This document shows positions 6,656 through 64,000 of a stretch of DNA of 64,000 nucleotides, piece by piece. The stretch is taken from the NCBI GenBank assembly GCA_045636325.1, contig JAZTXH010000009.1:59479-123478 (forward strand), given 5' to 3'. Position 1 is the stretch's first letter, and each line of letters opens with the position of its first letter. The notes beneath the pieces are model-generated. The model ran no database searches, was not told where the DNA came from, and saw nothing but the letters and a program-made list of their open reading frames with translations. The DNA comes from Clostridia bacterium (lineage in GTDB: Bacteria; Bacillota; Clostridia; UBA1381; UMGS1253). A program made the translations under genes and the position numbers.

Positions 6656-8635
6656 TTATTCCTCAACAGGAGCTGCTGCTTGTTCAACAACTTCAGCGGG
6701 CATTTCCTCTGCAGACGCTTCTTCTACAGGAAGAAGTGCTCTTATGCTAAGGCTGATTCTCTTCTTTTCCCAGTCAAGCTCCGTAATCTTAGCTTCAACT
6801 TCCTGACCAAGTGTAAGCTCATCTGCAGGCTCTTTAATTCTCTTGTTTGCAATCTGAGAAATATGGATAAGGCCGTCAACTCCTGGGATAAGCTCAACAA
6901 ATGCACCAAAGGGCATAAAACGAACTACCTTACAGCTAACAACGTCTTCTAAGTTAAACTTATTCTGAGCAATAACCCATGGATTGTCTTCCGCTTTCTT
7001 AAAACCAAGAGAAATCTTCTTTGTATCCTCAGCGATTTCCTTAATGTAAACTTCAATTGAATCTCCTTCGTTAACAACTTCAGTAGGAGTCTTAATTCTC
7101 TTCCAGCTAAGCTCGCTGATGTGAAGTAAACCTTCAACACCGCCAATATCAACAAATACACCGAAAGGCATTACAGACTTAACAACACCTGTATACTTCT
7201 TGCCAACTTCACAGTCAGCCCAGAATTTTTCTGCCAAAGCTTTCTTCTGCTCAACCAACACATCGCGAATTGAACCTAAGATACGCTTACGTCTCTGATT
7301 AATTTCTGTGATACGAAGTTTGACTTCCTGATTAACAAAAACAGATAAATCCTCTGTGTATCTGTCAGATACTTTTCTTGCAGGAACAAACACGCGGCTA
7401 CCCTCAACCAAAACAATAATACCGCCGTTTACTACACTTATTACTTTACCTGTTAAAATTTCTTTGCTTTCCAAAGCATCCTCAATCTTTTTCCAGCCTG
7501 CAATAGAATCAAGCTTTTTCTTGGAAAGAACAGTTTTGCCTTCGCCGTCATTAACGCCTACAACAAACACAGAAATAACGTCGCCTACTTTTACAATGTC
7601 TTTAGGATTTACATCCGGATCGTCTGTAAGCTCGTCTGCTGCAATTATACCGTCTGACTTAAATCCAAGGTCAACAATAACCTCAGTAGGTCTAACGTCT
7701 ACAACTGTACCTTCAACCACGTCTCCTGTATTTAAAGTCTTTAGAGTTTGCTCCATAGCCTCCTCAAAGCTTAATTCTGCGCCATTTTTAATTTCTTCCA
7801 TTGCTTTCGCTACCTCCTCGATAATACCGGCCGGAGTTGAGGCACCGGCAGTAATACCTATTTTTTTGTTTTTATAATTTATATCCTGAGGAATTTCCTC
7901 AAAATTTTCAATATGAAAAGTGTCTTTGCAGTTCTTTTTGCAAATATCGTATAATTTTACGGTGTTTGAACTGCTTTTTCCGCCTACAACAAACATAACA
8001 TCACACTTTTTTGAAATCTCGCCTGCTTCTGCCTGACGATTCTTTGTTGCATTGCAAATGGTGTCGCAAATAAGAGCATCAGTGCTTTTTTCTTTAAGTA
8101 TGCGGCATATGTTTTCGAAGTTTTCACGGCTTCCGGTGGTTTGTGAAACCACGCATATTTTTTCATTATCAATTTTTTCTGCTTCACGGGGAGTATTGAT
8201 AATTATATGCCTGCCTTCTTTGCACCAACCTGCAATACCAATAACCTCAGGATGATTCCTGTTACCCACTATTACAACAAATCTGCCGTCATCGGTCTGT
8301 TCTCTTACAATATCGTGAATTTTTTTAACATAAGGGCATGTAAGGTCAATCATTTCAAGACCAAGGGATTTAATCTTATCTTCAACCGCTTTGCTGACAC
8401 CGTGAGCTCTTATAACAACACACGCATCCTTCGCGCTTTCATCAACAGACTCGATTTTTCGGACTCCCTTTGAATATAAATCACTGTTAACCTGAGGGTT
8501 ATGAATAAGCTCACCAAGCAAAGCAATTTTTCTTTTCTCATCAAGCAAACTGTAAACCCCGTCAACCGCACGCTTAACGCCAAAGCAAAAGCCTGCGCTT
8601 TTAACAACTGTAATATCTTTTATAATACTTTCCAT
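6656..8635 (-). CDS. ispH: bifunctional IspH (HMBPP reductase) / ribosomal protein S1-like fusion
   Basis: 659 aa. The N-terminal ~280 aa is LytB/IspH. The C-terminal part has four S1 OB-fold repeats (GxVxxVxxFGAFVxL-type blocks). Confidence 0.9.
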   Translation of the reverse strand: MESIIKDITVVKSAGFCFGVKRAVDGVYSLLDEKRKIALLGELIHNPQVNSDLYSKGVRKIESVDESAKDACVVIRAHGVSKAVEDKIKSLGLEMIDLTCPYVKKIHDIVREQTDDGRFVVIVGNRNHPEVIGIAGWCKEGRHIIINTPREAEKIDNEKICVVSQTTGSRENFENICRILKEKSTDALICDTICNATKNRQAEAGEISKKCDVMFVVGGKSSSNTVKLYDICKKNCKDTFHIENFEEIPQDINYKNKKIGITAGASTPAGIIEEVAKAMEEIKNGAELSFEEAMEQTLKTLNTGDVVEGTVVDVRPTEVIVDLGFKSDGIIAADELTDDPDVNPKDIVKVGDVISVFVVGVNDGEGKTVLSKKKLDSIAGWKKIEDALESKEILTGKVISVVNGGIIVLVEGSRVFVPARKVSDRYTEDLSVFVNQEVKLRITEINQRRKRILGSIRDVLVEQKKALAEKFWADCEVGKKYTGVVKSVMPFGVFVDIGGVEGLLHISELSWKRIKTPTEVVNEGDSIEVYIKEIAEDTKKISLGFKKAEDNPWVIAQNKFNLEDVVSCKVVRFMPFGAFVELIPGVDGLIHISQIANKRIKEPADELTLGQEVEAKITELDWEKKRISLSIRALLPVEEASAEEMPAEVVEQAAAPVEE

Positions 8636-8685: not shown

Positions 8686-9303
8686 TTACTTTTTTGCAAG
8701 ACTTTTTTTTGTTTCTTCCCTTATTTTTCGGATTTCACTCAAAACTTCACTGCTGATTTTGTGCATTGTGTCCGAATCCAGTTTACATCCGTAGTACTCG
8801 TCAAGATAAACAGGCTTGCCGAATTTTACATAAATAGTTGAAAAAATTCTGCAATTTCCAACGATTGCTACAGGCACAACCGGCACCTTTGAGCGGTGTG
8901 CAAGCATTATCATACCATCTTTTGCATCATCAGCGGTCTGGTTCTCCTCTTTAAGGCGTGTGCCCTCTGGAAAAATAAGAAGCGGCTTTGCTGATTTCAA
9001 AAGACCTAATGCAGTTTTTATTGCCTTAATATCGCTTCCGCCCCGGTCAATAGGAAATGCATTTAATATTTTTAAAAGCCATGCAAATGGTTTAAATTTA
9101 AAAAGCTCCTTTTTTGCCATAAAATTAAGCTCATCCGGACAGACAAACGCAAGGCTTATGGGGTCCCATGCACTTATATGGTTAGCCGCTAAGACGTACC
9201 CTGAGTCTTCTGGTATATTTTCCACACCTTTAGCCTTTACTCTGAAAAAAGGATATAAAACTACCTTCGCCATCGGCACTATCGCTTTATACAAATTATT
9301 CAT
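8686..9303 (-). CDS. plsC: 1-acyl-sn-glycerol-3-phosphate acyltransferase
   Basis: NHISAWD (HX4D) and FPEGTR acyltransferase motifs. Confidence 0.8.
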   Translation of the reverse strand: MNNLYKAIVPMAKVVLYPFFRVKAKGVENIPEDSGYVLAANHISAWDPISLAFVCPDELNFMAKKELFKFKPFAWLLKILNAFPIDRGGSDIKAIKTALGLLKSAKPLLIFPEGTRLKEENQTADDAKDGMIMLAHRSKVPVVPVAIVGNCRIFSTIYVKFGKPVYLDEYYGCKLDSDTMHKISSEVLSEIRKIREETKKSLAKK

Positions 9304-9325
9304 TCCTTTCGTTTAAAAAACAATT

Positions 9326-10006
9326 TTATCTGATGCTTTTTTTGATAAAATTATAAATATATTCTTCTGTCTGGCTAAGAGTCATATCGCCGTTATCAAT
9401 AACTGTTGCCGTCTGTGCAATTTTAAGCGGGCTTTCTTTTCTTTTAGAATCGTTTTTATCCCTTGCTTTAACATCAGCCAAAACATCTTCAAAATTAACG
9501 CTCTCACCTTTCAAGATAAGCTCGTCATATCTTCTTTTTGCGCGTTTTTCGGAATCTGCTGTAAGAAAAATTTTAACCTGTGCATTTGGAAGCACACTTG
9601 TGCAGATATCTCTGCCGTCCATAATAACATTTGCTTTTTTCGCCATAAGCCTTTGCAAACTCACAAGCTTTTTTCTTACACTTTTAACCGTTGCCACATT
9701 GGATGCCCCCATGCTTATTTCAGGCGTTCTTATAAGACCCGACACATCTTCGCCGTTTAAAAAAACGTGCTGAGATGAATCTATATATTTAATTTCAATA
9801 TCAATATCATCTAAAATGTCATCAAGCCTGCCATCGGAATTTCTTGTGTCAACTCCGTTTCTTATGGCAAAAAGCGCAACTGCACGATACATTGCACCGG
9901 TATCAATATAAACATATCCGAGCCTTTTTGCAACAGACTTTGCCACACTGCTTTTACCTGCGCCGGCAGGACCGTCAATTGCAACACTGATAAATTTATT
10001 TTCCAT
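9326..10006 (-). CDS. cmk: cytidylate kinase
   Basis: P-loop GPAGAGKSS. The start is moved to MENKF (AGGGAGA SD 7 nt upstream), which also removes the overlap with the upstream gene. Confidence 0.9.
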   Translation of the reverse strand: MENKFISVAIDGPAGAGKSSVAKSVAKRLGYVYIDTGAMYRAVALFAIRNGVDTRNSDGRLDDILDDIDIEIKYIDSSQHVFLNGEDVSGLIRTPEISMGASNVATVKSVRKKLVSLQRLMAKKANVIMDGRDICTSVLPNAQVKIFLTADSEKRAKRRYDELILKGESVNFEDVLADVKARDKNDSKRKESPLKIAQTATVIDNGDMTLSQTEEYIYNFIKKSIR

Positions 10007-12743: not shown

Positions 12744-13601
12744 TTGGACAGAAAAAGAATTTTAGTTATTGGCGGCGATTTAAGACTTGTATACCTTGCT
12801 GATGCCTTTTTAAAAAACGGATTTGAAACTTCCGTGTACGGAATTGAATATAACACATCCATTCTTGGAATCACTCCTGAAGAAAGCCTTGAAAATGCCA
12901 TGAGCAGAGCAGATGTTATAATTCTTCCACTGCCAGTAAGCCGTGACAGACGAAACATAAATGCCGGATATTTTAAGGCAGATATTCCTTTAAATCTGTT
13001 TTTAGAAAACCTAAAACCACATCACATAGTTTTCGGCGGAATGATAACAGACGATTTAAAGACAACCATTGAAAGCAAATCCGCAAAATGCTTTGACTAT
13101 TTTAAAGATGAACAGCTTACCTTAAAAAATGCACAGCTGACTGCAGAGGGTGCAATAAGCACCGCAATTGAAAACACACACTTTTCCCTGTTTGAAAGCA
13201 AGGTTGTAATTCTAGGCTTCGGCAGGATTGCGAAATTTTTAGCCAAGTACCTTGCAGGATTCGAGTGTCGGGTAAGTATATGTGCAAGAAATAAAATTGC
13301 CCTTTCTGAAGCTCAGCTTTCAGGCTATGATGTGTGTGAGCTAAAGAATATGCATCCCGTTTTAAACCGAGCAGATATTATATTTAACACTGTCCCTGCC
13401 CTTGTACTTTCAAAACAGGAGCTTGAATGCATAAGAAAACCCACGCTTGTAATTGACCTTGCATCAAAGCCCGGCGGTGTGGATTTAAGTGCCGCCGCAA
13501 GCCTTGGCATAAATCATATTCAGGCACTTTCTCTGCCGGGTAAAACCGCTCCTGCGAGTGCAGGCAGAGCCATTTACAAAACAGTGACGGAAAATCTTTA
13601 A
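12744..13601 (+). CDS. dpaA: dipicolinate synthase subunit A
   Basis: 285 aa. SpoVFA-like N-terminus (RILVIGGDLR) and a second Rossmann block (VVILGFGRIA). Followed directly by dpaB. Confidence 0.8.
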   Translation: MDRKRILVIGGDLRLVYLADAFLKNGFETSVYGIEYNTSILGITPEESLENAMSRADVIILPLPVSRDRRNINAGYFKADIPLNLFLENLKPHHIVFGGMITDDLKTTIESKSAKCFDYFKDEQLTLKNAQLTAEGAISTAIENTHFSLFESKVVILGFGRIAKFLAKYLAGFECRVSICARNKIALSEAQLSGYDVCELKNMHPVLNRADIIFNTVPALVLSKQELECIRKPTLVIDLASKPGGVDLSAAASLGINHIQALSLPGKTAPASAGRAIYKTVTENL

Positions 13602-20766: not shown

Positions 20767-21459
20767 TCAGCTAATCTGTCCGAATTTTACAAGTGCCTTT
20801 CTGGCAGCATCCTGCTCCGCTTCTTTCTTGCTTTTACCCACACCGCGGCACAGGGGTTCGTCGTTTTTAAACGCTATAACATCAAACACCTTATCATGCT
20901 CAGGACCCGACTCGCCAGCAGTTTCATATCTTACATAATGACCATCTTTTTGAATATATTCCTGAAGTATGGTTTTAAAATCTTTAGTGTATTTTCCCTT
21001 TGATGCCATTTCAATCGATTTCTCAAGCTGATTTAATACCCATTTTTTAACAGCCTCAAAGCCTGAATCAAGATAAATTGATGCAATAACCGCCTCAAAC
21101 GCATCCGATACAACAGATGCTCTGTTTCTGCCGCCCGTCATTTCTTCACCCTTACCAAGCAGAATATAATTTCCAAGGCCTATTCTGTCAGCCGCTTCTT
21201 TTAAAGACTGCTCGCAAACAATTGCCGCACGCATTTTACTAAGCTCACCTTCAGGCTTAGTCGGACATCTCTCAAACAAACTGTGACCTATTATGAAATC
21301 TACAATAGCATCGCCCAAAAACTCAAGTCTCTCATTTGACAATTCTTTTTTAATTCGCTTTTCATTTGCATAAGATGTATGAGTAAGCGCAGTTTTTAAA
21401 AGCTGCTTGTCTTTATAAACATAGCCCATACTTTTTTCCAAAGCTTCAAAATCCTTCAT
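20767..21459 (-). CDS. rnc: ribonuclease III
   Basis: ERLEFLGDA signature and a C-terminal dsRBD. Confidence 0.95.
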   Translation of the reverse strand: MKDFEALEKSMGYVYKDKQLLKTALTHTSYANEKRIKKELSNERLEFLGDAIVDFIIGHSLFERCPTKPEGELSKMRAAIVCEQSLKEAADRIGLGNYILLGKGEEMTGGRNRASVVSDAFEAVIASIYLDSGFEAVKKWVLNQLEKSIEMASKGKYTKDFKTILQEYIQKDGHYVRYETAGESGPEHDKVFDVIAFKNDEPLCRGVGKSKKEAEQDAARKALVKFGQIS

Positions 21460-21556
21460 ATTTCATCAACCTTTCAAAGATTGATTTAAATAATAAAAAC
21501 CACCTTAAAATCAGATTTACTTTATTACTTAAATCAATATATAATTATATTTTTAT

Positions 21557-21589
21557 ATAAAAAAAGACTTTCTTATGCAGAAAAGTCTT
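21557..21589 (-). terminator. acpP terminator
   Basis: Minus RNA reads AAGACUUUUC-ugcauaa-GAAAGUCUU followed by a U-run. Confidence 0.7.
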
Positions 21590-21610
21590 GCATCGTAAGA
21601 ATAATCAAGC

Positions 21611-21636
21611 GGCATGGAGATATATATCTCCATACC
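21611..21636. repeat. perfect 26-nt palindrome immediately after the acpP stop
   Basis: GGCATGGAGATATATATCTCCATACC; core ATGGAGATATATATCTCCAT. No U-run follows. Confidence 0.5.
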
Positions 21637-21652
21637 GATTTATTCCTATGAC

Positions 21653-21883
21653 TTAAATCTGGCTGTTAATGTAATTAACTGCATCAGCAACTGTTACAAT
21701 GCCTTCTGTATCCTCATCAGGGAATTCAACATCAAACTCTTCCTCAACTGCCATAACAAGCTCAACAACATCCAAAGAATCAGCACCAAGATCATCTTTA
21801 AAAGAAGAATCCATTGTGATAATATCTTCATCAACACCAAGCTGTTCAGAAATTATGTTTTTAATTTTTTCAAACACCATCAA
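21653..21883 (-). CDS. acpP: acyl carrier protein
   Basis: 76 aa. [19 protein letters not shown] phosphopantetheine-attachment motif. Confidence 0.95.
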
Positions 21884-53766: not shown

Positions 53767-54477
53767 TTAATTTTCAGAATATATAACTATAAGATCCGGA
53801 TGAAGCTGAAGAATTGAAGCCGGCACTTCGGGAGTTATAGGACCGAAAAATGCCTTGTTTACGATTTCTTCTTTACTTTTGCCGTTTGCAATCAATAACA
53901 CTTTTTTAGCCTGCATTATAGCACCCATACCCATTGTTATTGCTTCCTTTGGCACATCATCTATCGAATCAAAGAAGCGTGCATTTGCCTCAATTGTTGA
54001 CGGATCAAGCTTTACAACGTGAGTTTCCTTTGTAAAAAATTCCTCTGGCTCATTAAAACCTATATGACCATCAAAACCGATGCCCAAAAGCTGAAGGTCT
54101 ATTCCGCCAAGCGCCTTAATACGCTCATCATATTTTTCGCCTTCTTTTTTCAAATCTTCTGCACAACCATCAGGTACAAATGTAAAATCGCGGCGAATAT
54201 TAATTTTCGAAAACAGATTTGTATCCATAAAATAACGATAGCTCTGGTCATTATCGCCTGTAAGACCAACATACTCATCCAAATTTACGGAAGTAACCTC
54301 TGAAAAGTCAACATCACCAGCCTCATATTTTTCAATAAGCTTTTCGTATGTTCCAAGAGGACTTGAGCCTGTTGCAAGACCGAGCACACTCTCAGGCTTT
54401 GAAATAACCTGTGCTGCTATAATTTCAGCTGCCTTACGGCTTAACTTTTCATAACTGTCTACTTTAATAAATCTCAC
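53767..54477 (-). CDS. nagB: glucosamine-6-phosphate deaminase
   Basis: 236 aa. NagB blocks LGLATGSSP and GIGFDGHIGFNEP. Confidence 0.85.
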   Translation of the reverse strand: MRFIKVDSYEKLSRKAAEIIAAQVISKPESVLGLATGSSPLGTYEKLIEKYEAGDVDFSEVTSVNLDEYVGLTGDNDQSYRYFMDTNLFSKINIRRDFTFVPDGCAEDLKKEGEKYDERIKALGGIDLQLLGIGFDGHIGFNEPEEFFTKETHVVKLDPSTIEANARFFDSIDDVPKEAITMGMGAIMQAKKVLLIANGKSKEEIVNKAFFGPITPEVPASILQLHPDLIVIYSEN

Positions 54478-54504: not shown

Positions 54505-55173
54505 TTATTTTCTTTTTACTATATTGTCCATACTTTTAACAATACAGCCTGCTGCAAAAACGCCCCTGAGTGAATTAAGAGGGTAAACAGTTGTGTTCTT
54601 TCCTATCACTGTTCCGGGATTAAGCACACATGAGCATCCAACATCTGCCCCGTCTGCCAATACACCGCCAATTTTTCTTATTCCGGTTTTATAATCAATA
54701 TCCCCATGAATAACAACCGGCTTGCCGTCAGCCTTAAGATTAGAACAAATAGACCCTGCACCCATATGAGCGTGATTGCCCAATATAGAATCTCCTATAT
54801 AATTATAATGCGGAACTTGCACTTTGTCAAGTAAAATACAATTTTTTAACTCCGATGAATTTCCGATAACACAATTTTCACCGGTTATGACACTGCCTCT
54901 TATGAATGCGCCCGGCCTCACTTCACAGTAATGACCTATAATCGTGGGTCCTTCAATTACTGCATTTGGATATATTTTTACATTTTTTCCGACCCATACG
55001 CCTTTTTCTATTTCGAAAAAACCGTCCAAACCATTTTCAATAAGATTTTCAATATACCCTTTTATCTTTTCTAACATCTGCCAGGGATATTCGCTTTTTT
55101 CAAAAAGCTCTTTTAAATAGGGTGTTCTACATTCAAAAAGCTCGTTTGTTTTAACCTGCTTATTCAACACCAT
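54505..55173 (-). CDS. left-handed beta-helix (hexapeptide) acyltransferase resembling the GlmU C-terminal domain
   Basis: ~222 aa. Hexapeptide repeats with HYNYIGDSILGNHAHMGAGSICSN, similar to GlmU LbH. No nucleotidyltransferase domain. Confidence 0.6.
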   Translation of the reverse strand: MVLNKQVKTNELFECRTPYLKELFEKSEYPWQMLEKIKGYIENLIENGLDGFFEIEKGVWVGKNVKIYPNAVIEGPTIIGHYCEVRPGAFIRGSVITGENCVIGNSSELKNCILLDKVQVPHYNYIGDSILGNHAHMGAGSICSNLKADGKPVVIHGDIDYKTGIRKIGGVLADGADVGCSCVLNPGTVIGKNTTVYPLNSLRGVFAAGCIVKSMDNIVKRK

Positions 55174-56782
55174 GTCCCCTTTCAATAATTTTGTCTGAAA
55201 CAATCTGTGCATATTCTATGCATTTATCTTTACTTTCACACTCAATCATAACTCTTATAACTGGCTCTGTTCCGCTTTGACGCAAAAGCACTCTTCCCTT
55301 TCCTCCAATAAGTTTTTCCACATAAGAAAGCTCTTCAATCACTGCATCATCCGTCATAACTGATTTCTTATCCTTAACGCGAATATTTTTCATATACTGC
55401 GGATACAATTTAACTGGCTCAGCAAGCTCTGACAAAGAACGTTTTCTATCACAAACTTCTTCAGTAAGCATTATAGCTGTAAGTATACCATCACCGGTGG
55501 TCGCATATTTTTTCAAAATTATATGCCCCGATTGTTCACCGCCAAGACAATAATCATTTTGTTGCATGCTCTCATACACAAATCTATCGCCAACATTTGT
55601 TTGTACACATTTTATGCCCTCTTCTTCAAGGCTGGAAAGCAGTCCGCTGTTTGTCATAACTGTTGCAACTATAGTATTGTGGTTAAGCACACCTCTGTTT
55701 TTTAAACGCTTACCTAAAATATAGAGCATTAAATCACCATCTACTACATTTCCGTTTTCATCAACTGCTATACATCTGTCAGCATCTCCATCGAAGGCAA
55801 AACCCATATCAAGGTGCTGTTCACGAACAAGCTTACAAAGATTTTCAATATGAGTTGAGCCACACCCTTCATTTACATTAAGTCCGTTAGGTTCGGCTCC
55901 AATTACAACAGTTTGTGCACCAAGCGCTCCAAATACCGCTTTTGCAATCATCCACGAAGCGCCGTTAGCACAGTCCAATCCAATTTTAAGCGATTTATAT
56001 GAATGTGACGCAATAGAAATCAAATAACCAAGATATCGGTTTCTGCCTGATGCATAGTCTACAATGCAACCAATTTTCTCTCTGCCTGCCAAAGGTAGGT
56101 CATCAGATACAACACCAAATGCCTTTAAATCACCATCAATATAGCTTTCTATAAGTGAAGTTGTAGAATCTTCAAGTTTTTCACCATAGCGGTTTATAAC
56201 CTTTATACCATTATCATAATATGGATTATGAGATGCAGTAATCATTATACCGCAATCAAACTCATCCTGACGGGTAACATAAGAAACACTTGGTGTTGTG
56301 GTAACATGCAGCATATATGCATCCGCACCTGATGCTGTAATTCCTGCAACAATGGAATATTCAAGCATATAACTTGACCTTCTTGTGTCTTTTCCTATAA
56401 CAATTCTTGGTCTGTATCCAGCCTTTGTGTTACCTGAAAGCGCAGAAGAATAATACCACCCCAGAAAACGACCAACCTTATATGCCTGCATAGATGTAAG
56501 CGTAAGGTTTGCCTCACCGCGAAAACCGTCAGTTCCAAAATACTTATTTGAGCCTAATTTCTTCTCAATCTTATGATTTATAGTAATTTTATCCTGTAAT
56601 AATTCGTCTGTTGAAATATCAAACAACTCACAAAGCTGTAAAACCTTATCAATCTGCGGAATTGCCTGATCCATTTCCCATTTTGAAACAGACTGTCTGG
56701 AAACTGAAATCCTTTCTGCCAATTGCTCCTGAGAAATATTAGCGGCGGTTCTAAGTTTTAAAATTTTTTCACCTATAGTCAT
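55160..56782 (-). CDS. glmM: XRE-type HTH domain fused to phosphoglucosamine mutase
   Basis: 540 aa. Residues 1 to ~65 are HTH_3 (LRTAANISQEQLAERISVSRQSVSKWE). The remainder is intact GlmM (TASHNP, FDGDADR, GGEQSGH, RQSGTEP). Confidence 0.85.
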   Translation of the reverse strand: MTIGEKILKLRTAANISQEQLAERISVSRQSVSKWEMDQAIPQIDKVLQLCELFDISTDELLQDKITINHKIEKKLGSNKYFGTDGFRGEANLTLTSMQAYKVGRFLGWYYSSALSGNTKAGYRPRIVIGKDTRRSSYMLEYSIVAGITASGADAYMLHVTTTPSVSYVTRQDEFDCGIMITASHNPYYDNGIKVINRYGEKLEDSTTSLIESYIDGDLKAFGVVSDDLPLAGREKIGCIVDYASGRNRYLGYLISIASHSYKSLKIGLDCANGASWMIAKAVFGALGAQTVVIGAEPNGLNVNEGCGSTHIENLCKLVREQHLDMGFAFDGDADRCIAVDENGNVVDGDLMLYILGKRLKNRGVLNHNTIVATVMTNSGLLSSLEEEGIKCVQTNVGDRFVYESMQQNDYCLGGEQSGHIILKKYATTGDGILTAIMLTEEVCDRKRSLSELAEPVKLYPQYMKNIRVKDKKSVMTDDAVIEELSYVEKLIGGKGRVLLRQSGTEPVIRVMIECESKDKCIEYAQIVSDKIIERGHGVE

Positions 56783-57095: not shown

Positions 57096-57131
57096 AAAAA
57101 CAAATAAAAAGCCCGCCTTATAGCGAGCTTT
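57096..57131 (-). terminator. terminator ending the BMC operon after the DeoR gene
   Basis: Minus RNA reads AAAGCUCGC-uauaa-GGCGGGCUUU followed by UUAUUUGUUUUU. Confidence 0.75.
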
Positions 57132-57135
57132 AATA

Positions 57136-57897
57136 TCATACTTTTACAAGTTCTACCTTGCTTTCTTTTAAAACATTTTCCCAACTTTCGGAAATCGTCG
57201 CATCAGTTATAAGACATTCTATATCTTCAAACCTTGCAAGTTTAGCAAATCCAACTCTGCCAATCTTACTTTTGTCACATAAATAATACGCACTTTTGGA
57301 ATTTTTAAGCATACATTTTTTTATGCCGCACTCCTGCTCATTACTTTCAAGGATTCCCGTTTCTTCCATAATGCCTTTACTGGAAAAAAACATTTTATCA
57401 GCAAAATAATTTTTAGAAATATTATCTTCAGCCAATGTTCCTACAAGGCTCATATTGTGACTAGCAATTCCGCCAACAGCAATAAGCTTAATGTTTTCAC
57501 TACCGGCAAGCTCATTCACAACACGAATGGAATTTGTAATGACAGTAATATTTTTTATATTATTTATTTCCTTTGCCATATAAAAAGTAGTAGTAGACGC
57601 ATCAAGAAAAACTGTGTCACCAGGCAGTATGTATCCTGCTGCCACTGCAGCAAGCTTTTCCTTTGCATCAACATTCGTACGCTTTCTTTTTTCAAGCGAA
57701 AGCTCATATGCAGTTGCATCAATTGGAACAGCTCCGCCATGTGTTCGCATTAAACACTCTTGTTTTTCAAGTTTTTCAAGATCACGTCTTATTGTCTCTT
57801 CTGTAACTCCAAGCTCACTGCTTAATCGGCTTACCCATACTGCACCGTTATCAGCAAGCTTTTGAAGTATAATCTTCTGACGTTCAAGTGCAAACAT
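57136..57897 (-). CDS. DeoR/GlpR family transcriptional regulator
   Basis: N-terminal HTH_DeoR (ERQKIILQKL…VTEETIRRDLEKLE) plus a DeoR C-terminal sensor domain. Starts 11 nt after the pduL stop. Confidence 0.85.
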   Translation of the reverse strand: MFALERQKIILQKLADNGAVWVSRLSSELGVTEETIRRDLEKLEKQECLMRTHGGAVPIDATAYELSLEKRKRTNVDAKEKLAAVAAGYILPGDTVFLDASTTTFYMAKEINNIKNITVITNSIRVVNELAGSENIKLIAVGGIASHNMSLVGTLAEDNISKNYFADKMFFSSKGIMEETGILESNEQECGIKKCMLKNSKSAYYLCDKSKIGRVGFAKLARFEDIECLITDATISESWENVLKESKVELVKV

Positions 57898-57908
57898 ATA
57901 TCTGTCTC

Positions 57909-58583
57909 CTACTTCTGAATTATTCTTACCTTGTTTCCATTCTTGAGGCCGGCTGAGTTTGCATCATCAGTATCAATATGCATCTCAACATTAAAATCAT
58001 CACGAACTCGAACCTGAACACCATAAAATTTTGTAGTTTTTAAGTTTTCGCCTTCTATCATAACGTCAACATAATCATTATCCTTAATGGCGTGCTTTTC
58101 GGCATATTCAGGAGTTAAGTGTATATGGCGGTTGGCAATGATAACGCCTTCCTTTAAATATACGCTACCCTTAGGTCCTACAATAACCAGTTTTTCCGAA
58201 CCCTTAATTTCACCTGAAGGTCTCACCGGAGGGCTAACCTTTAAAACAAACGTATCTGTTCTTGAAATTTCTACTTGAGTATTTTTTCTTACCGGACCCA
58301 AAACCCTTACCTTTTCTATACTTTTCAGTGATGGACCAACCAAAGTAACAAACTCATTTGAAGCATACTCTCTGCCCATAAGAGTTTTAAACTTTGTAAG
58401 CTCATATCCTTTACCGAAAAGAGTGTCTAAATCTTCACGGCTAAGGTGAATGTGTCTTTGTGACACACCTACCTTAATCTCTCCATCATCAGATTCCTTA
58501 TCACTTGCCTGCGGTGCACCGCTTTTATTTATATCAGCAATAACTTCTGCTACTATCTTTTCAATCTGTGCTGCATCGTACAT
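57909..58583 (-). CDS. pduL: phosphate propanoyltransferase (PduL-type phosphotransacylase) with an N-terminal encapsulation peptide
   Basis: Duplicated PduL motifs (GVSQRHIHLS, IIANRHIHLT). An amphipathic N-terminal helix AAQIEKIVAEVIADI. Confidence 0.85.
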   Translation of the reverse strand: MYDAAQIEKIVAEVIADINKSGAPQASDKESDDGEIKVGVSQRHIHLSREDLDTLFGKGYELTKFKTLMGREYASNEFVTLVGPSLKSIEKVRVLGPVRKNTQVEISRTDTFVLKVSPPVRPSGEIKGSEKLVIVGPKGSVYLKEGVIIANRHIHLTPEYAEKHAIKDNDYVDVMIEGENLKTTKFYGVQVRVRDDFNVEMHIDTDDANSAGLKNGNKVRIIQK

Positions 58584-58600
58584 TTATTTCACCTCACAAA

Positions 58601-59248
58601 TTACTCATTCATATCAAAAAACTTAACAATTTCGCCTGATACATTTGCAATAACTTCACAACCGTATACCTTACCAAGCCTTGATGCCGCATTACTGCCG
58701 TTTTCCAAAGCTGATTTAACATCAGAAACTCTGCCCGCAATGATAAATGTACAAAGTCTGCCTCCAAGGCGCTTTTCTGTATGCACAAGGCGTATGTTTG
58801 CCGCCTTAAGCATATTGTCAAGACCTTCTATAGATGCAACAAGCCCCTGAACCTCCAAAAGACCAATGGCACCTGTATAGCTCGGCACAAATTCCCCTTT
58901 TCTTGATTTTTCAAGGTTTTCTTTAAAATGCTTGTTGTATTTATCTTTATTTATATCTGCAAGATACGCCATCTTGTCCACAGTATCCTCAGGTCTTGGA
59001 ATAACATGAGAAACAATAAACTTTCCGCAATCCTTTGCATAAGCGCTTCCTGCTTCAACAGCCGCGTTAACTGCATCGACATTGCCCTCTATCTTTACCA
59101 CCATAACAAGCGGTGCAGGCACATCTGTTCTTATTGGTCTGTTTCTGTCAAAAGCGACAATCTGAACGTCAGCCGCTTTTGCTGCTGTGTCTGCCACACA
59201 AACCGCAGTTGTAAAGCTGTAAACCTCAATCAAACCTAATGCTTTCAT
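58601..59248 (-). CDS. tandem-BMC-domain shell protein (BMC-T)
   Basis: 215 aa. Two non-permuted BMC domains (ALGLIEVYS… and AIGLLEVQG…). Confidence 0.75.
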   Translation of the reverse strand: MKALGLIEVYSFTTAVCVADTAAKAADVQIVAFDRNRPIRTDVPAPLVMVVKIEGNVDAVNAAVEAGSAYAKDCGKFIVSHVIPRPEDTVDKMAYLADINKDKYNKHFKENLEKSRKGEFVPSYTGAIGLLEVQGLVASIEGLDNMLKAANIRLVHTEKRLGGRLCTFIIAGRVSDVKSALENGSNAASRLGKVYGCEVIANVSGEIVKFFDMNE

Positions 59249-59265
59249 TTATAACACTCTCCGTA

Positions 59266-60693
59266 TCAAACAATATGTAGTCCGTCAGCCATTACGCATC
59301 TTCTCTGACGAGTAAAGCTTCTTGCTGATGTAATACCCTCACCGGTAGGTCCTGCAATAGTAAATGTTGTATGACCTTCACCCCCTGCACCGATACCTGC
59401 ATAAGAAGGAGCATTCTTAACAAATATTGTTGTTTCAACTGCACGCGCAAATGCGGTAAGTCTGTCAACATTCTTTGAATGAATATGTGCACTGTGGCGG
59501 TTGCCATGTTCTGCCTTAACTGCCATATTTATAGCTTCTTCAATATCATTAACTCTAACAATAGCAAGAATTGGCATCATCATTTCAACCTGAACAAAAG
59601 GATGATTTTCTTCTGTTTCACAAATAATCAGTTTAGCATCAGCCTCAATTCCAAGCTCTTTTAAGAACTTCTTTGCATCTTTTCCTACCCATTTTTTATT
59701 TATAGAATATTTACCGTCTTTTTCAACAAGACAAAGCTTAACCAAATCATCAATCTGCTTACCCTTAAGAAGATATGCACCTGCATCCTGCATGTAAGCA
59801 ACCAGCTGGTCTGTAATACTTGCAAATGCAAAACATTCTTTTTCTGCAATACAGGGAAGGTTATTGTCAAAGCTTGCACCTGCAACAATATCAGATGCCG
59901 CCTTTTTAATATCAGCAGTATCATCTACTATAACAGGAGGATTGCCTGCACCAGCACCTATTGCCTTCTTGCCTGAAGACAAAAGTGCACGCACAACGCC
60001 TGGGCCACCTGTTGCAACAAGCATCTTTACAAGAGGAGATGCCATCATTTCATCTGAGCTTTCCTTTGTAGGCTGCTCTACTGAAACAACTAAATTTTCA
60101 GGACCGCCTGCTTCAAGAATTGCGCGGTTTACCAAATCAACTGCGTAATTTGCTGTTTTGCACGCATTAGGGTGGGGATTGAAAACAACTGCGTTACCGC
60201 CTGCAATCATACCCATTGAGTTACATAAAACTGTTTCACTGGGATTTGTAGAAGGTGTTATACTTCCAATAACGCCGTAAGGTGCCATCTCTATAAGTGT
60301 AAGACCTGCATCGCCTGTAAATACCTTCGGCTCCAAATCCTCTGTACCAGGAGTCTTTTTTGCCACAAGCTGATGCTTGATAATCTTATCAGGCACATTA
60401 CCCATACCTGTTTCTTCAACACCAAGCTTTGCCATTTCTTCTGCTTCCTGTAATGTAAGCTTTCTAATATTTGAAATCATCTGTTCTCTCTGCTCAACTG
60501 TATATGAGCGGAACTGAGCATATGCCTTACCTACTGCATCCAAAGCTTCGCCCATTGTTTTAAATACACCCTTCTGCGCATGACACTTGCAGTCACCACC
60601 GCAACTGCCGCCACAAGAACATTTGCTCTCGCCATCCATAACGCTCATAACTGCTTCAACAATTTTTGATAACTGTGTTTCATCAATCTTCAT
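59266..60693 (-). CDS. CoA-acylating aldehyde dehydrogenase (PduP/EutE type) with an encapsulation peptide and a Cys-rich linker
   Basis: Catalytic block NNLPCIAEKE. N-terminal helix ETQLSKIVEAVMSVM. Linker CSCGGSCGGDCKCH at residues 25-38. Confidence 0.85.
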   Translation of the reverse strand: MKIDETQLSKIVEAVMSVMDGESKCSCGGSCGGDCKCHAQKGVFKTMGEALDAVGKAYAQFRSYTVEQREQMISNIRKLTLQEAEEMAKLGVEETGMGNVPDKIIKHQLVAKKTPGTEDLEPKVFTGDAGLTLIEMAPYGVIGSITPSTNPSETVLCNSMGMIAGGNAVVFNPHPNACKTANYAVDLVNRAILEAGGPENLVVSVEQPTKESSDEMMASPLVKMLVATGGPGVVRALLSSGKKAIGAGAGNPPVIVDDTADIKKAASDIVAGASFDNNLPCIAEKECFAFASITDQLVAYMQDAGAYLLKGKQIDDLVKLCLVEKDGKYSINKKWVGKDAKKFLKELGIEADAKLIICETEENHPFVQVEMMMPILAIVRVNDIEEAINMAVKAEHGNRHSAHIHSKNVDRLTAFARAVETTIFVKNAPSYAGIGAGGEGHTTFTIAGPTGEGITSARSFTRQRRCVMADGLHIV

Positions 60694-60748
60694 ATCACAT
60701 TGCTCCTGTCTTTAAAAATATCTATCACAAAAAACTTAATTTTCTACT

Positions 60749-61297
60749 TTATAAAATTGCCTGCCATAGCTTTTTATCGGGATTTGCAATAACAGAACTA
60801 TCAAGAAACATTCCTGCTCCGCCTGCTTTTTCTTTTGCACGTTCAATTGCCGCACTTACAGCTGCAATTTCACCTGTTATAAGCATATAGCTCTTACCGC
60901 ACATTCCCCTTGCAAGCCTTAACTCTATAAGCTCAACCATGCTGGTCTTTGCCGCTTCATCTGCTGCAACAATCATACTTGCCGCACTGTATGTTTCCAA
61001 AACACCCAGCGCCTTTGCATTCTCAATCTCACCGGTACCATATATTGCAGGAATAACCGACTCGTGAGGATTACCAAGAACAAAGCTGTCAATCATTTTA
61101 TCACCACATAAGCTTTTAGCCGCATCCACACAAGCACGCACCGCACTTATCTCCCCCGAAAAAAGCATAATATACTTACCCGGACACACCGTCTGAGCTT
61201 CAATAATTTCCACTTCAGCAGTTTTAACAACCATATCAGCAGCATACATACCTGCCGAAACAGTCTGATATTCTATCATTCCAATTGCACTTCTCAT
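60749..61297 (-). CDS. PduT-like tandem BMC shell protein
   Basis: Two BMC domains with QTVCPGKY (the Cys position that ligates a 4Fe-4S cluster in PduT). Start set to the ATG with a GGAGGAGAG SD. Confidence 0.75.
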   Translation of the reverse strand: MRSAIGMIEYQTVSAGMYAADMVVKTAEVEIIEAQTVCPGKYIMLFSGEISAVRACVDAAKSLCGDKMIDSFVLGNPHESVIPAIYGTGEIENAKALGVLETYSAASMIVAADEAAKTSMVELIELRLARGMCGKSYMLITGEIAAVSAAIERAKEKAGGAGMFLDSSVIANPDKKLWQAIL

Positions 61298-61314
61298 ATT
61301 ATTCTCTCCTCCGC

Positions 61315-62646
61315 TCACGCATCAATCACAACAAACCTGTCGCATACTTCTTTTACTTTTCCGCTGACAGATGCATGAATGTCTGTTCCTAAAGCATCTA
61401 AGGGTGCTTTGGCAATAACATCGCCCAAATTCACCTTGTCGCCTTTTTTAACAACCGGCACGCAACCCGCACCGATATTTTGCGCCATTGAAATCTTTAC
61501 TCGTTTGATTTTCAATTCTTCTTCCGTTAATTTTGCTTCTCTATCATATTTTTTAAGATTTAATCTTGCCGTTAATCTTGACATAGACACTCTACGGTAA
61601 GAAAAATCCTTCTTTTCGTCTTTAAGTTCACGTTTTGGTGGCTTTATGCCATTTTTTCTAAGCCCGCTTCTGTACTCATCAATAAGAGTCTTTGGCGAAA
61701 GCATTTGATTACAAGCAAACATCTCACACAAGCCGCACTGCGAACAAAAGAATGTGTCAAGCATTGCGTCTGTATCAAGCACTGTTCCCGAAGACGCTGC
61801 ATGCATAAAAACAGCTGGGTCAATTGGGTATCCCAATGCATTTCTTGGGCATAAATCCGTGCACATTCTGCACTGACAACACGCACTCATTGCCCTTTTC
61901 ATACCGATAGACGGATTAATCAGCCTTTTTGTAACTATATTATGTTCTTTTGGCATAACAAGAATTGCATTGCTTGTTTTAGTTACCGTATCAGTTTCGT
62001 TTACTATTCTGCCCGTCATAGGACCACCGCCTATCAACACACAGTTTTCTATAGTTTTTCCACCACAAAGCTCTATAAGCTCACCATATGTTGTACCAAT
62101 CGGCACTTTTAAGGTTTTTGCCGTTTCTACCTCACCTGTAACAGTTACATATTTATGGGTAACCGGCAATTTTTCCTCTACTGCATTATAAATGTTTAAT
62201 ACTGTTTCAACATTAAATACTATACATCCTATCTGAATAGGAATTCCCCCCGGCGGAACACGTTTCTTTGTTGCCTCATGAATTAAAACAACCTCGTCTC
62301 CGGCAGGATATATTTCAGGCAAAGTGCACACGCTTACACCTTCGAAAGCGTCAATATAACTCATAACTGAATCATAAGCTTCTTTGTATGAGCCTTTAAG
62401 ACAAATTATTACTTCCTTTGCCGAAACCGCTTTTTTTATAAGGTCAAGACCTTTTAAAATTTCCAGGGCATAATTTGCCAGAAGCTGACGGTGAAGTTTT
62501 AAAAGCGGCTCACATTCAGCACAATTCAAAAGGATAGTTTGCGCTCTTTCGTCAAGCTTAGCATAGCTTGGAAAGCCCGCACCACCGGCACCTGCTATTC
62601 CGTTGTCTTTTAAAATTCCTTTTAGCTCTTCAAGCTTCATTTGCAT
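61315..62646 (-). CDS. PduS/RnfC-like flavin- and 4Fe-4S-binding oxidoreductase
   Basis: 443 aa. GAGGAGFPSYAKL, an SLBB-like middle region, and two CxxCxxCxxxCP ferredoxin motifs. Confidence 0.75.
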   Translation of the reverse strand: MQMKLEELKGILKDNGIAGAGGAGFPSYAKLDERAQTILLNCAECEPLLKLHRQLLANYALEILKGLDLIKKAVSAKEVIICLKGSYKEAYDSVMSYIDAFEGVSVCTLPEIYPAGDEVVLIHEATKKRVPPGGIPIQIGCIVFNVETVLNIYNAVEEKLPVTHKYVTVTGEVETAKTLKVPIGTTYGELIELCGGKTIENCVLIGGGPMTGRIVNETDTVTKTSNAILVMPKEHNIVTKRLINPSIGMKRAMSACCQCRMCTDLCPRNALGYPIDPAVFMHAASSGTVLDTDAMLDTFFCSQCGLCEMFACNQMLSPKTLIDEYRSGLRKNGIKPPKRELKDEKKDFSYRRVSMSRLTARLNLKKYDREAKLTEEELKIKRVKISMAQNIGAGCVPVVKKGDKVNLGDVIAKAPLDALGTDIHASVSGKVKEVCDRFVVIDA

Positions 62647-62671
62647 TTACCCCATTTGTCTGATTCTATTA

Positions 62672-62938
62672 TTATAAGTTCACCCAGTCATCAACGATAC
62701 CTACGATAGCGGCATCAACCGGTGAAGTGTCCATACTGCAACCTATTCTTGCTGCGCTTCCAGTTGCAATCAAAACAATTTCACCTATTCCGGCACCAAC
62801 GTTATCAACAGCAACTATTCTGCCTTCGCCCATGCCTTCCATGGGTGAAACTATTAAAAACTTACTTCCAACAAGATTTTCATTTTTTCGTGTCGCAACA
62901 ACACTTCCTACAACCTTACCAACAATCATGAATTTCAC
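62672..62938 (-). CDS. EutN/CcmL-family pentameric vertex protein (BMC-P)
   Basis: 88 aa. (M)IVGKVVGSVVATRK N-terminus. The start could be the GTG at 62938 or the ATG at 62929. Confidence 0.85.
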   Translation of the reverse strand: MKFMIVGKVVGSVVATRKNENLVGSKFLIVSPMEGMGEGRIVAVDNVGAGIGEIVLIATGSAARIGCSMDTSPVDAAIVGIVDDWVNL

Positions 62939-62966
62939 CCGTTTCCTTATAAAGTAAGCCTATATT

Positions 62967-62998
62967 ATGGCAGACGGATTTAAAAGTCCGCCTGCCAT
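62967..62998 (-). other. intercistronic GC-rich hairpin between the BMC-H and BMC-P genes
   Basis: ATGGCAGACGGA-8 nt-TCCGCCTGCCAT: 12-bp arms with one mismatch and no U-run on the coding (minus) strand. Confidence 0.5.
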
Positions 62999-63029
62999 TT
63001 TTAACAGGCACATAAATTTACCTTGCTAA

Positions 63030-63434
63030 TCAAATAGCGGGTAAAATCTTTTCAACGTCACCGTGAGGTCTGGGAATTACGTGTACAGCTACTAATTCAC
63101 CAAGCTTTGATGCAGAGCTGGAACCTGCCTCTACAGCAGCTTTAACCGCACCTACGTCACCTCTTATCATAACGCTTAGAAGACCGCTACCGATTTTCTC
63201 TGTACCAACCAAAGTAACGTTTGCAGCCTTTAACATTGCGTCAGCAGCCTCTACTGCTGCAACTAAACCTCTTGTTTCTACCATACCTAATGCTTCCATT
63301 GCCATTTTTACTTCCTCCTTTATTTTTTCCTTTACTTCATCTTTTATTTCATTAACCGCTGCAGTTGCAGTCGGCTTATCAGCTCTTACGCTTTTTGCAC
63401 GGCTTCTTTTTGCCGGCGTCTTTTTTTCTTCCAT
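63030..63434 (-). CDS. BMC-H shell protein with a 43-aa charged N-terminal extension (alternative internal start at 63305)
   Basis: The C-terminal 91 aa is nearly identical to the neighbouring PduA/EutM-like BMC-H. Both M1 (AGGGGTGA SD) and M44 (AAGGAGG SD 8 nt upstream) have ribosome-binding sites. Confidence 0.8.
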
Positions 63435-63450
63435 TTTAAATCACCCCTGA

Positions 63451-63726
63451 TTAAAATTTGGGTAAAATCTTTTCAACATCAGCGTGGGGTCTGGGGATTA
63501 CATGTACAGCTACTAATTCTCCAAGCTTTGATGCAGCATTTGCACCAACTTCTGTAGCAGCTTTAACTGCGCCAACGTCACCTCTTACCATAACACTTAC
63601 AAGACCGCTACCAATCTTTTCTGTGCCGATTAAAACAACCTCTGCTGCTTTAACCATTGCATCTGCAGCCTCTACTGCTGCTGTTAAACCTCTTGTTTCT
63701 ACCATACCTAATGCTTCCTGTGCCAT
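63451..63726 (-). CDS. BMC-H shell protein (PduA/EutM-like)
   Basis: 91 aa. ALGMVETRG…[20 protein letters not shown]…VHVIPRP. Confidence 0.9.
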
Positions 63727-63765
63727 TTTTAAATTCCTCCTCTAAATATATACTTAATTTTAAAA

Positions 63766-64000
63766 TTATTCATTTATTATAGCAACCTTCAAGCCTTCCA
63801 TCTTGAGGTTAGTCTGAAGTGCTTCATTTATTTTGTCTAAAGGATACTTATGAGTAATAAGATCCTTCATGGGAAGACCTATCCCCTTTGCTCTCTTTAA
63901 GAAATCAAATGTTGTTGCATAGTCTCTTAAAGTGTAAACCCATGAACCTACAACGGTAATCTCTTTTGAACAAATGTCAAAGTGAGGGTTAATTGTTGCG
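63766..64000 (-). CDS. 3' end of a zinc-type medium-chain alcohol/polyol dehydrogenase (5' part off-window)
   Basis: Hand translation of the minus strand gives …ATINPHFDICSKEITVVGSWVYTLRDYATTFDFLKRAKGIGLPMKDLITHKYPLDKINEALQTNLKMEGLKVAIINE*, an MDR-family C-terminus. Stop at 63766-63768. Confidence 0.6.
   Translation of the reverse strand, partial: ATINPHFDICSKEITVVGSWVYTLRDYATTFDFLKRAKGIGLPMKDLITHKYPLDKINEALQTNLKMEGLKVAIINE

Follow-up and report, generated by a model that had tools for sequence, protein, structure and literature searches.

A truncated microcompartment locus from an uncultured Firmicute and its probable relationship to GRM5 fucose/rhamnose metabolosomes

The window analysed here, a stretch of 64,000 nucleotides from a Clostridia bacterium (GenBank assembly GCA_045636325.1, contig JAZTXH010000009.1, forward-strand positions 59,479 to 123,478), ends within a bacterial microcompartment (BMC) locus. 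The locus lies on the minus strand at 57136–64000, and the question it raises is which type of metabolosome it encodes, and for which substrate, when the sequence stops before any signature enzyme gene. The preliminary description assigned it to no type and suggested that the substrate may be unusual. We assign the locus to the known GRM5/PVM-like group (GRM, glycyl radical enzyme-associated microcompartment; PVM, Planctomycetes and Verrucomicrobia microcompartment), as a new member from an uncultured host that differs in its operon order and in having a shell gene formed by fusion. Very probably it is the promoter-distal half of a GRM5-type fucose/rhamnose metabolosome operon, for which the gene for the glycyl radical enzyme (GRE) and the other upstream genes are predicted from syntenic relatives.

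Gene content and the hallmarks of GRM5

In minus-strand order, the locus encodes the C-terminal part of a zinc-type alcohol dehydrogenase of the medium-chain dehydrogenase/reductase (MDR) family, a hexamer-type shell protein (BMC-H), a BMC-H with an N-terminal extension, a pentamer-type protein (BMC-P), a PduS-like oxidoreductase, a PduT-like shell protein with two BMC domains (BMC-T), a CoA-acylating aldehyde dehydrogenase (AldDH), a second BMC-T, a PduL-type phosphotransacylase and a DeoR-family regulator. Pfam backs each of these ten genes (E-values 1e-28 to 1e-68), and all three shell classes are clustered (two BMC-H, two tandem-domain BMC and one EutN_CcmL protein). The positions of the open reading frames and the Pfam matches agree with the gene list, the order and the terminator given in the preliminary description, and the gene identities bear out its statement that a metabolosome core (AldDH, PduL and shell genes) is truncated at the window edge. 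It had also reported that no signature enzyme is visible, and this held. When bases 1–64000 were searched by tblastn with GRE, activase, aldolase and DUF336 queries, nothing matched except the MDR fragment. Neither PduCDE nor PduGH is found among the window genes.

Axen 2014 (PMC4207490) lists a DeoR regulator, PduS and a zinc-type alcohol dehydrogenase as hallmarks of GRM5, the dehydrogenase carrying zinc-binding pfams and not being of the usual iron type. PduS and PduT are present in 57 of 57 GRM5 loci, and the PduT pore motif is C-[PSA]-G-[KRS]-[YF] (Ferlez 2019, PMC6325248). The window matches these traits, with adjacent PduS and PduT genes, the pore cysteine motif, a zinc-type MDR alcohol dehydrogenase, a DeoR regulator, and the AldDH and PduL core. 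Since DeoR and the zinc-type dehydrogenase are published GRM5 traits, they are diagnostic of a known type. We note that, together with the PduS/PduT pair, they identify the GRM5/PVM-like group even where the signature genes have been cut off.

The AldDH points the same way. Its best match in the PDB is Cphy1178 (4c3s/5dbv/5dru; 537 bits), followed by the GRM3 PduP of Rhodopseudomonas palustris (5jfl). Cphy1178 is the propionaldehyde dehydrogenase of the fucose/rhamnose microcompartment of Clostridium phytofermentans; it prefers propionaldehyde and makes propionyl-CoA. The placement of the window AldDH in the Cphy1178/PduP clade is by best-match comparison.

Relatives of the locus and the genes upstream of the dehydrogenase

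Related loci were surveyed using the conserved C-terminus of the MDR protein as the probe. The set consisted of 80 metagenome loci and several obtained by protein look-up, about 85 in total (numbered with the prefix L below). Open reading frames were called, the products were clustered, and recurrent clusters were labelled by Pfam and NCBIfam. Upstream of the MDR gene, the recurrent clusters were a PFL-like protein of ~843 aa with a Gly_radical domain, a glycyl radical activating enzyme (~265 aa), a BMC protein (~120 aa), PduV/EutP, a class II aldolase (~270 aa) and an HbpS-like/DUF336 protein (~170 aa). Wherever the sequence extends far enough, the class II aldolase is found upstream of the MDR gene, with L085 as the sole exception. 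A GRE, which is of the 1,2-propanediol dehydratase type, or its activase was found in 25 of the 31 informative loci.

In the majority arrangement, the AldDH gene lies directly before the MDR gene, after the aldolase/(DUF336) genes, and the full order is GRE, activase, PduU-like BMC, (PduV), aldolase, (DUF336), AldDH, zinc-type alcohol dehydrogenase, three to four BMC genes, PduL, EutN, PduS, PduT and DeoR. This is, gene for gene, the order of Cphy_1174–1187 in C. phytofermentans, a locus for which growth on fucose or rhamnose brings 15–87 fold induction (Petit 2013, PMC3557285); the need for these sugars and the appearance of polyhedral bodies are likewise established for that species. In L031 and L034, the GRE gene sits downstream of DeoR; in the window, such a position is excluded by the 57 kb of housekeeping genes on the DeoR side.

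The window shares with the GRM5 loci of C. phytofermentans and Roseburia inulinivorans the zinc-type alcohol dehydrogenase, BMC-H genes, PduL, EutN/BMC-P, PduS, PduT, AldDH and DeoR-type regulator. However, its gene order differs from that of the majority, as the MDR gene is followed by BMC-H, extended BMC-H, BMC-P, PduS, PduT, AldDH, the tandem BMC, PduL and DeoR. The AldDH, BMC and PduL block thus stands after PduT, whereas in C. phytofermentans AldDH precedes the alcohol dehydrogenase and PduL precedes EutN. Other differences from GRM5 are that two BMC-H genes are fused in the window, giving a 215-aa tandem protein, that the gate residue of the AldDH (F423 of Cphy1178) is Ala, that no iron-type alcohol dehydrogenase gene follows DeoR, unlike in many of the relatives, and that GRE, activase and aldolase are outside the window.

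The permuted order defines a clade made up of the window, L001, L003, L008, L035, L092, L093, L043 and L089. Of these, L043 and L089 alone have sequence upstream of the MDR gene, and they are the closest complete relatives of the window. In both, genes for a GRE, an activase, a PduU-like BMC, PduV, an aldolase and an HbpS-like/DUF336 protein are found directly upstream of the MDR gene. L043 also shows the terminal DeoR gene, as in the window, and L089 ends inside PduL. The window proteins are 77–79 % (AldDH) and 77–78 % (PduL) identical to their counterparts in L043 and L089, and the DeoR regulator is 67 % identical to that of L043, compared with ~55 % (AldDH), ~50 % (PduL) and ~36 % (DeoR) identity to the majority type. 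The GREs of L043 and L089 are 83 % identical to one another. The L043 enzyme matches over its full length the B12-independent diol dehydratase of R. inulinivorans (5i2a) with 1273 bits; the runner-up is a glycerol dehydratase (1025 bits), and choline lyases also score below 5i2a.

Other loci combine the same proximal genes with a GRE. In L010, L026 and L033, the order DUF336, MDR, BMC-H, BMC-H, BMC-P, PduS and BMC-T is accompanied by a GRE or an activase, and the shorter L040 and L091, which have this order as far as their sequence goes, are GRE-positive. The lone exception among loci with the window's proximal order is L074, which has no GRE upstream. L008, from a sister species (82–93 % identity), has the same order from BMC-P to DeoR and ends on the same side as the window. 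Exact matches to the window's small shell proteins come from contigs of 0.5–2 kb (L001–L003). A link to sugars is given by a divergently oriented gene for L-rhamnose isomerase (RhaA) that adjoins the GRE gene of L091 (8531–9787, minus strand) and by an FGGY sugar kinase gene that follows DeoR in L043 (13574–15040); no rhamnose isomerase or FGGY kinase gene flanks the window locus on its downstream side.

The identity of each window gene and the synteny with complete GRM5-like loci are direct observations. On this basis, genes for an aldolase, DUF336, PduV, a PduU-like BMC, an activase and a GRE are predicted to lie just past base 64000 in the source genome. The locus is ordinary, with its signature enzymes probably encoded just past the window edge. 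The view that its type was indeterminate and its substrate possibly unusual is therefore not upheld, in light of the GRM5 traits and of the GRM5 signature genes upstream in syntenic relatives, and neither is the view that a DeoR regulator with a zinc-type dehydrogenase is atypical. The preliminary description was correct in stating that the pattern is not that of a classic propanediol utilization (PDU) or ethanolamine utilization (EUT) locus, and of its suggestion of a sugar-phosphate type or a locus of unknown function, the link to a sugar phosphate stands and the unknown type does not. It had named an upstream GRM signature enzyme as the finding that would make the locus a routine one. Such an enzyme is present in L043 and L089, the closest complete relatives.

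Alternative readings of the upstream part

Several observations weigh against a GRE upstream of the window genes. The closest relatives of the window (L008, L001, L003, L092 and L093) all end before the upstream genes; in L092 and L093, which have the window's order, PduS is 68–69 % identical to that of the window. The PduS proteins of L043 and L089 are only 51–52 % identical to it. A search with the L043 GRE gave no match on the source contig among the best 120 matches. In addition, six related loci have no GRE within reach. In L006 and L007, none was found in the 10 kb to either side; in L062, L074 and L081, none was found on the upstream side alone; and L085 has the medium subunit of a B12-dependent diol dehydratase and a reactivase instead. 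Aldolase, AldDH, MDR, shell, PduS and PduT genes are present in L006, L007, L074, L081 and L062. The locus might belong to an aldolase-only (PVM-like) metabolosome with no GRE, in which encapsulated lactaldehyde would be converted to lactyl-CoA, or to propanediol that is exported or handled elsewhere. PVM-like Firmicute loci syntenic to GRM5 are described by Axen 2014 (PMC4207490). However, those loci lack GRE and mostly lack a core alcohol dehydrogenase, and the presence of a core zinc-type enzyme in the window argues against membership, as does the GRE carried by its closest complete relatives. L043 and L089, which have the window's own arrangement, are GRE-positive, as are L010, L026, L033 and two incomplete loci, L040 and L091. 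In its hydrophobic tunnel the window AldDH resembles the propionaldehyde-preferring Cphy1178, although the tunnel is equally hydrophobic in GRE-negative loci. We consider an aldolase-only locus unlikely.

A B12-dependent variant of PDU would have PduCDE diol dehydratase and reactivase genes upstream, as in L085, where the diol dehydratase medium subunit and reactivase genes precede those for a PduO-like protein, an AldDH and a dehydrogenase of the same MDR family. PduS and PduT are classic PDU components, and the likeness to Salmonella pdu extends to the handling of propionaldehyde by a PduP-like AldDH, PduL and an alcohol dehydrogenase, and to homologous PduA/PduN-type shell proteins. However, L085 stands alone in this among ~31 informative loci, its MDR protein is the most divergent of the set (65 % identity to L043), and its gene order is unlike that of the window. 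No PduCDE, PduGH or PduO genes are visible in the window, its alcohol dehydrogenase is a zinc-type MDR enzyme in place of the iron-type PduQ, and its regulator is DeoR in place of PocR. An Rfam scan of the window found no family that reaches the gathering score, and no cobalamin riboswitch. We regard this as the least probable of the readings considered. The earlier idea of a sugar phosphate utilization (SPU) locus, or of an unclassified metabolosome with an unusual substrate, has only a very slight probability. SPU loci also have a DeoR-type regulator, PduS, AldDH and PduL, and a sugar phosphate substrate (Axen 2014, PMC4207490), and no signature enzyme is visible in the window. However, SPU uses a DeoC-type aldolase with RpiB and no alcohol dehydrogenase, whereas the window has an alcohol dehydrogenase and no cluster of a DeoC/LacD-type aldolase with RpiB. 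Among the ~85 loci, no DeoC/LacD-type aldolase or RpiB formed a recurrent cluster beside the MDR gene; the recurrent upstream clusters were those of GRE, activase, BMC, PduV, class II aldolase and DUF336, and DeoR with a zinc-type alcohol dehydrogenase is documented for GRM5. The SPU and unknown-type readings were rejected on the lack of a DeoC-type aldolase or RpiB near the MDR gene in every related locus.

It is also improbable, in our estimate, that the upstream part holds only an aldolase, or an enzyme family with no known link to microcompartments, and neither the GRE block nor PduCDE, so that a GRM5 chassis, made up of the zinc-type alcohol dehydrogenase, PduS and PduT, an AldDH whose gate is opened by F423A, and the fused BMC-H pair, would have been recruited to another aldehyde-generating reaction. 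A weaker version is that the window, L008, L092, L093, L035, L043 and L089 might form a distinct GRM5 sub-lineage. If so, the rearranged operon, the fused shell protein and the widened entrance of the AldDH tunnel might alter the substrate range of that sub-lineage.

The survey has some minor results of its own. The same MDR family stands behind the B12-dependent diol dehydratase medium subunit and reactivase in L085 (943–4117), so that propanediol loci of the GRE-based, aldolase-only and B12-dependent kinds all draw on one alcohol dehydrogenase family. In L007 and L054, a PduO-type adenosyltransferase fused to DUF336 is encoded after an iron-type alcohol dehydrogenase gene, a hint that a B12-dependent partner may be encoded at another site in the same genomes. 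In L089, a phage-integrase-family gene (8721–9560, minus strand) is directly upstream of the GRE gene, at the boundary of the microcompartment locus, and may mark a mobile island. A protein search with the 77-aa MDR fragment matched only short fragments, many on frameshift-rich long-read contigs, an outcome that is probably explained by the way candidates are selected when the query is short, and not by biology. L006 and L007, which are on such contigs and have a gene order unlike the window's, gave the first lead to the aldolase. A scan of genome contigs with PduS found only two distant Rnf/PduS-like relatives (31–33 % identity).

Proposed pathway, individual genes and the remainder of the window

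The pathway steps are taken from characterised homologues, from which we infer all biochemical roles. In the preferred GRM5 reading, the class II aldolase would cleave L-fuculose-1-phosphate or L-rhamnulose-1-phosphate to dihydroxyacetone phosphate and L-lactaldehyde, and reduction of the latter would give (S)-1,2-propanediol. Inside the shell, a B12-independent glycyl radical diol dehydratase would convert propanediol to propionaldehyde. The window AldDH would oxidize this to propionyl-CoA, reducing NAD+ to NADH, and PduL would form propionyl-phosphate with recycling of CoA, from which a cytosolic kinase would produce propionate and ATP. The zinc-type MDR enzyme could reduce a second aldehyde to 1-propanol, or lactaldehyde to propanediol, regenerating NAD+ inside the shell. 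PduS and PduT, with its iron–sulfur pore, would provide a route for electrons through the shell, perhaps to the GRE activase. The shell itself would be built from BMC-H, extended BMC-H, the fused BMC-H pair, PduT and BMC-P, and DeoR would control expression in response to a sugar phosphate. GRM5 loci are common in gut Clostridia, which turn the fucose and rhamnose of host glycans and of plant cell walls into propionate and propanol. As GRM5 microcompartments are already catalogued and partly characterised, the discovery value of this locus is small; the survey does put on record a variant of the operon, with the block of AldDH, BMC and PduL in a different place and a fusion of two BMC-H genes.

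The MDR gene (63766–64000, minus strand) is cut by the window edge, leaving the C-terminal 77 codons and the stop. The open frame runs from 63999 down to the stop codon at 63766–63768, and its 77 residues are 84 % identical to residues 322–398 of the full-length ADH_N/ADH_zinc_N protein of L043. It is the counterpart of Cphy_1179, a proposed propanol dehydrogenase. Next are the canonical BMC-H hexamer protein recognized by Pfam (63451–63726, minus strand; 91 aa), which is 92 % identical to the L043 BMC-H, and the extended BMC-H (63030–63434, minus strand; 134 aa), which has a Lys/Glu-rich N-terminal extension of ~45 residues ahead of a BMC domain at residues 48–123. The BMC-P pentamer (vertex) protein of 88 aa (62672–62938, minus strand) matches EutN_CcmL (2.3e-28).

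PduS, a flavo-iron–sulfur oxidoreductase of 443 aa (61315–62646, minus strand), has Complex1_51K, SLBB, Fer4_17 and RnfC_N domains. Its motifs include the Gly-rich nucleotide motif GAGGAG and the cysteine motif CCQCRMCTDLC, and a second Cys-rich stretch, CSQCGLCEMFAC, was spotted by eye in the translation. The PduT-like protein with two BMC domains (60749–61318, minus strand; Pfam 4.3e-43) is 182–189 aa long. As PduT in the relatives is 182 aa, the true start in the window is probably the Met codon at ~61297. Its top NCBIfam match is eut_PduT, below the cut-off of that model, and the pore motif is CPGKY at residue 45, a putative [4Fe-4S] site.

The AldDH gene (59266–60693, minus strand) encodes a PduP/Cphy1178-like protein of 475 aa (Aldedh 2.2e-35; NCBIfam PRK15398, 677 bits) in which the catalytic residues Cys281 and His400 are present. 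The tunnel residues I421 and I433 are hydrophobic and conserved. They were tried as a discriminator of propionaldehyde from lactaldehyde and rejected, as both positions are hydrophobic whether or not a locus has a GRE, and so do not tell the two kinds of locus apart. In Cphy1178, the phenylalanine F423 has been proposed as the gate of the substrate tunnel. The corresponding residue 436 is Ala only in the window, L043, L089 and L008; every other AldDH in the set has Phe or Tyr there. Judged from the substitution, this change could widen substrate access. Both AldDH and PduL have N-terminal amphipathic helices of the encapsulation-peptide kind; similar N-terminal helices are found in the MDR and DUF336 proteins of the relatives, and their aldolase has such a helix at the C-terminus. 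In the AldDH, residues 22–40 form a Cys/Gly-rich linker, SKCSCGGSCGGDCKCH, between this helix and the catalytic domain. The linker is found in the window and, shortened, in L008, and not in L092, L043 or L089. Its role might be to bind metal, or simply to provide flexibility.

The second BMC-T, with two BMC domains (58601–59248, minus strand; 215 aa; Pfam 1.3e-41), is the product of two BMC-H genes fused into one; in L089 (21209–21849), the two genes stand apart. Residues 1–112 are 59 % identical to the product of the L089 gene at 21209–21565, and residues 128–214 are 67 % identical to that of the gene at 21577–21849. The separate L089 products are 118 and 90 aa, with a gap of 11 bp between the genes, and the fused form is found in the window, L008 and L043. 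PduL (57909–58583, minus strand; 224 aa) matches PTAC (3.8e-68) and, above its cut-off, PRK15070 (237 bits); its N-terminal helix is AAQIEKIVAEVIADI. The DeoR-family regulator of 253 aa (57136–57897, minus strand; HTH_DeoR 1.7e-16, DeoRC 2.1e-46) is 85 % identical to that of L008. It is the counterpart of Cphy_1187 and probably a sensor of a sugar phosphate. An intrinsic-terminator-like hairpin with a T-rich tail, AAAGCTCGC-TATA-AGGCGGGCTTT (57098–57131, minus strand; ten pairs, five of them G-C, and a loop of 4), closes the locus, the hairpin proper (57131–57108, minus strand) standing immediately past the DeoR stop codon.

The host is an uncultured spore-forming Firmicute of ~37 % G+C, spore formation being indicated by the gene for the dipicolinate synthase DpaA at 12744–13601. 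The other large open reading frames of the window encode housekeeping proteins (LigA, IspH-S1, DpaA, PlsX, LepA, CarA, type III GlnA, NagB and others). Nearly all of the window genes are on the minus strand, and the GC skew is negative across the window. IspH and S1 are fused in a single gene at 6656–8635. In a 540-aa protein encoded at 55160–56782 (minus strand), an XRE-type HTH_3 domain (residues 8–61) is fused to a GlmM-like phosphoglucomutase/phosphomannomutase in which all four domains are present. It is unusual for a sugar-phosphate mutase to carry a DNA-binding domain, and the gene adjoins one for a NagB-like glucosamine-6-phosphate deaminase (53767–54477).

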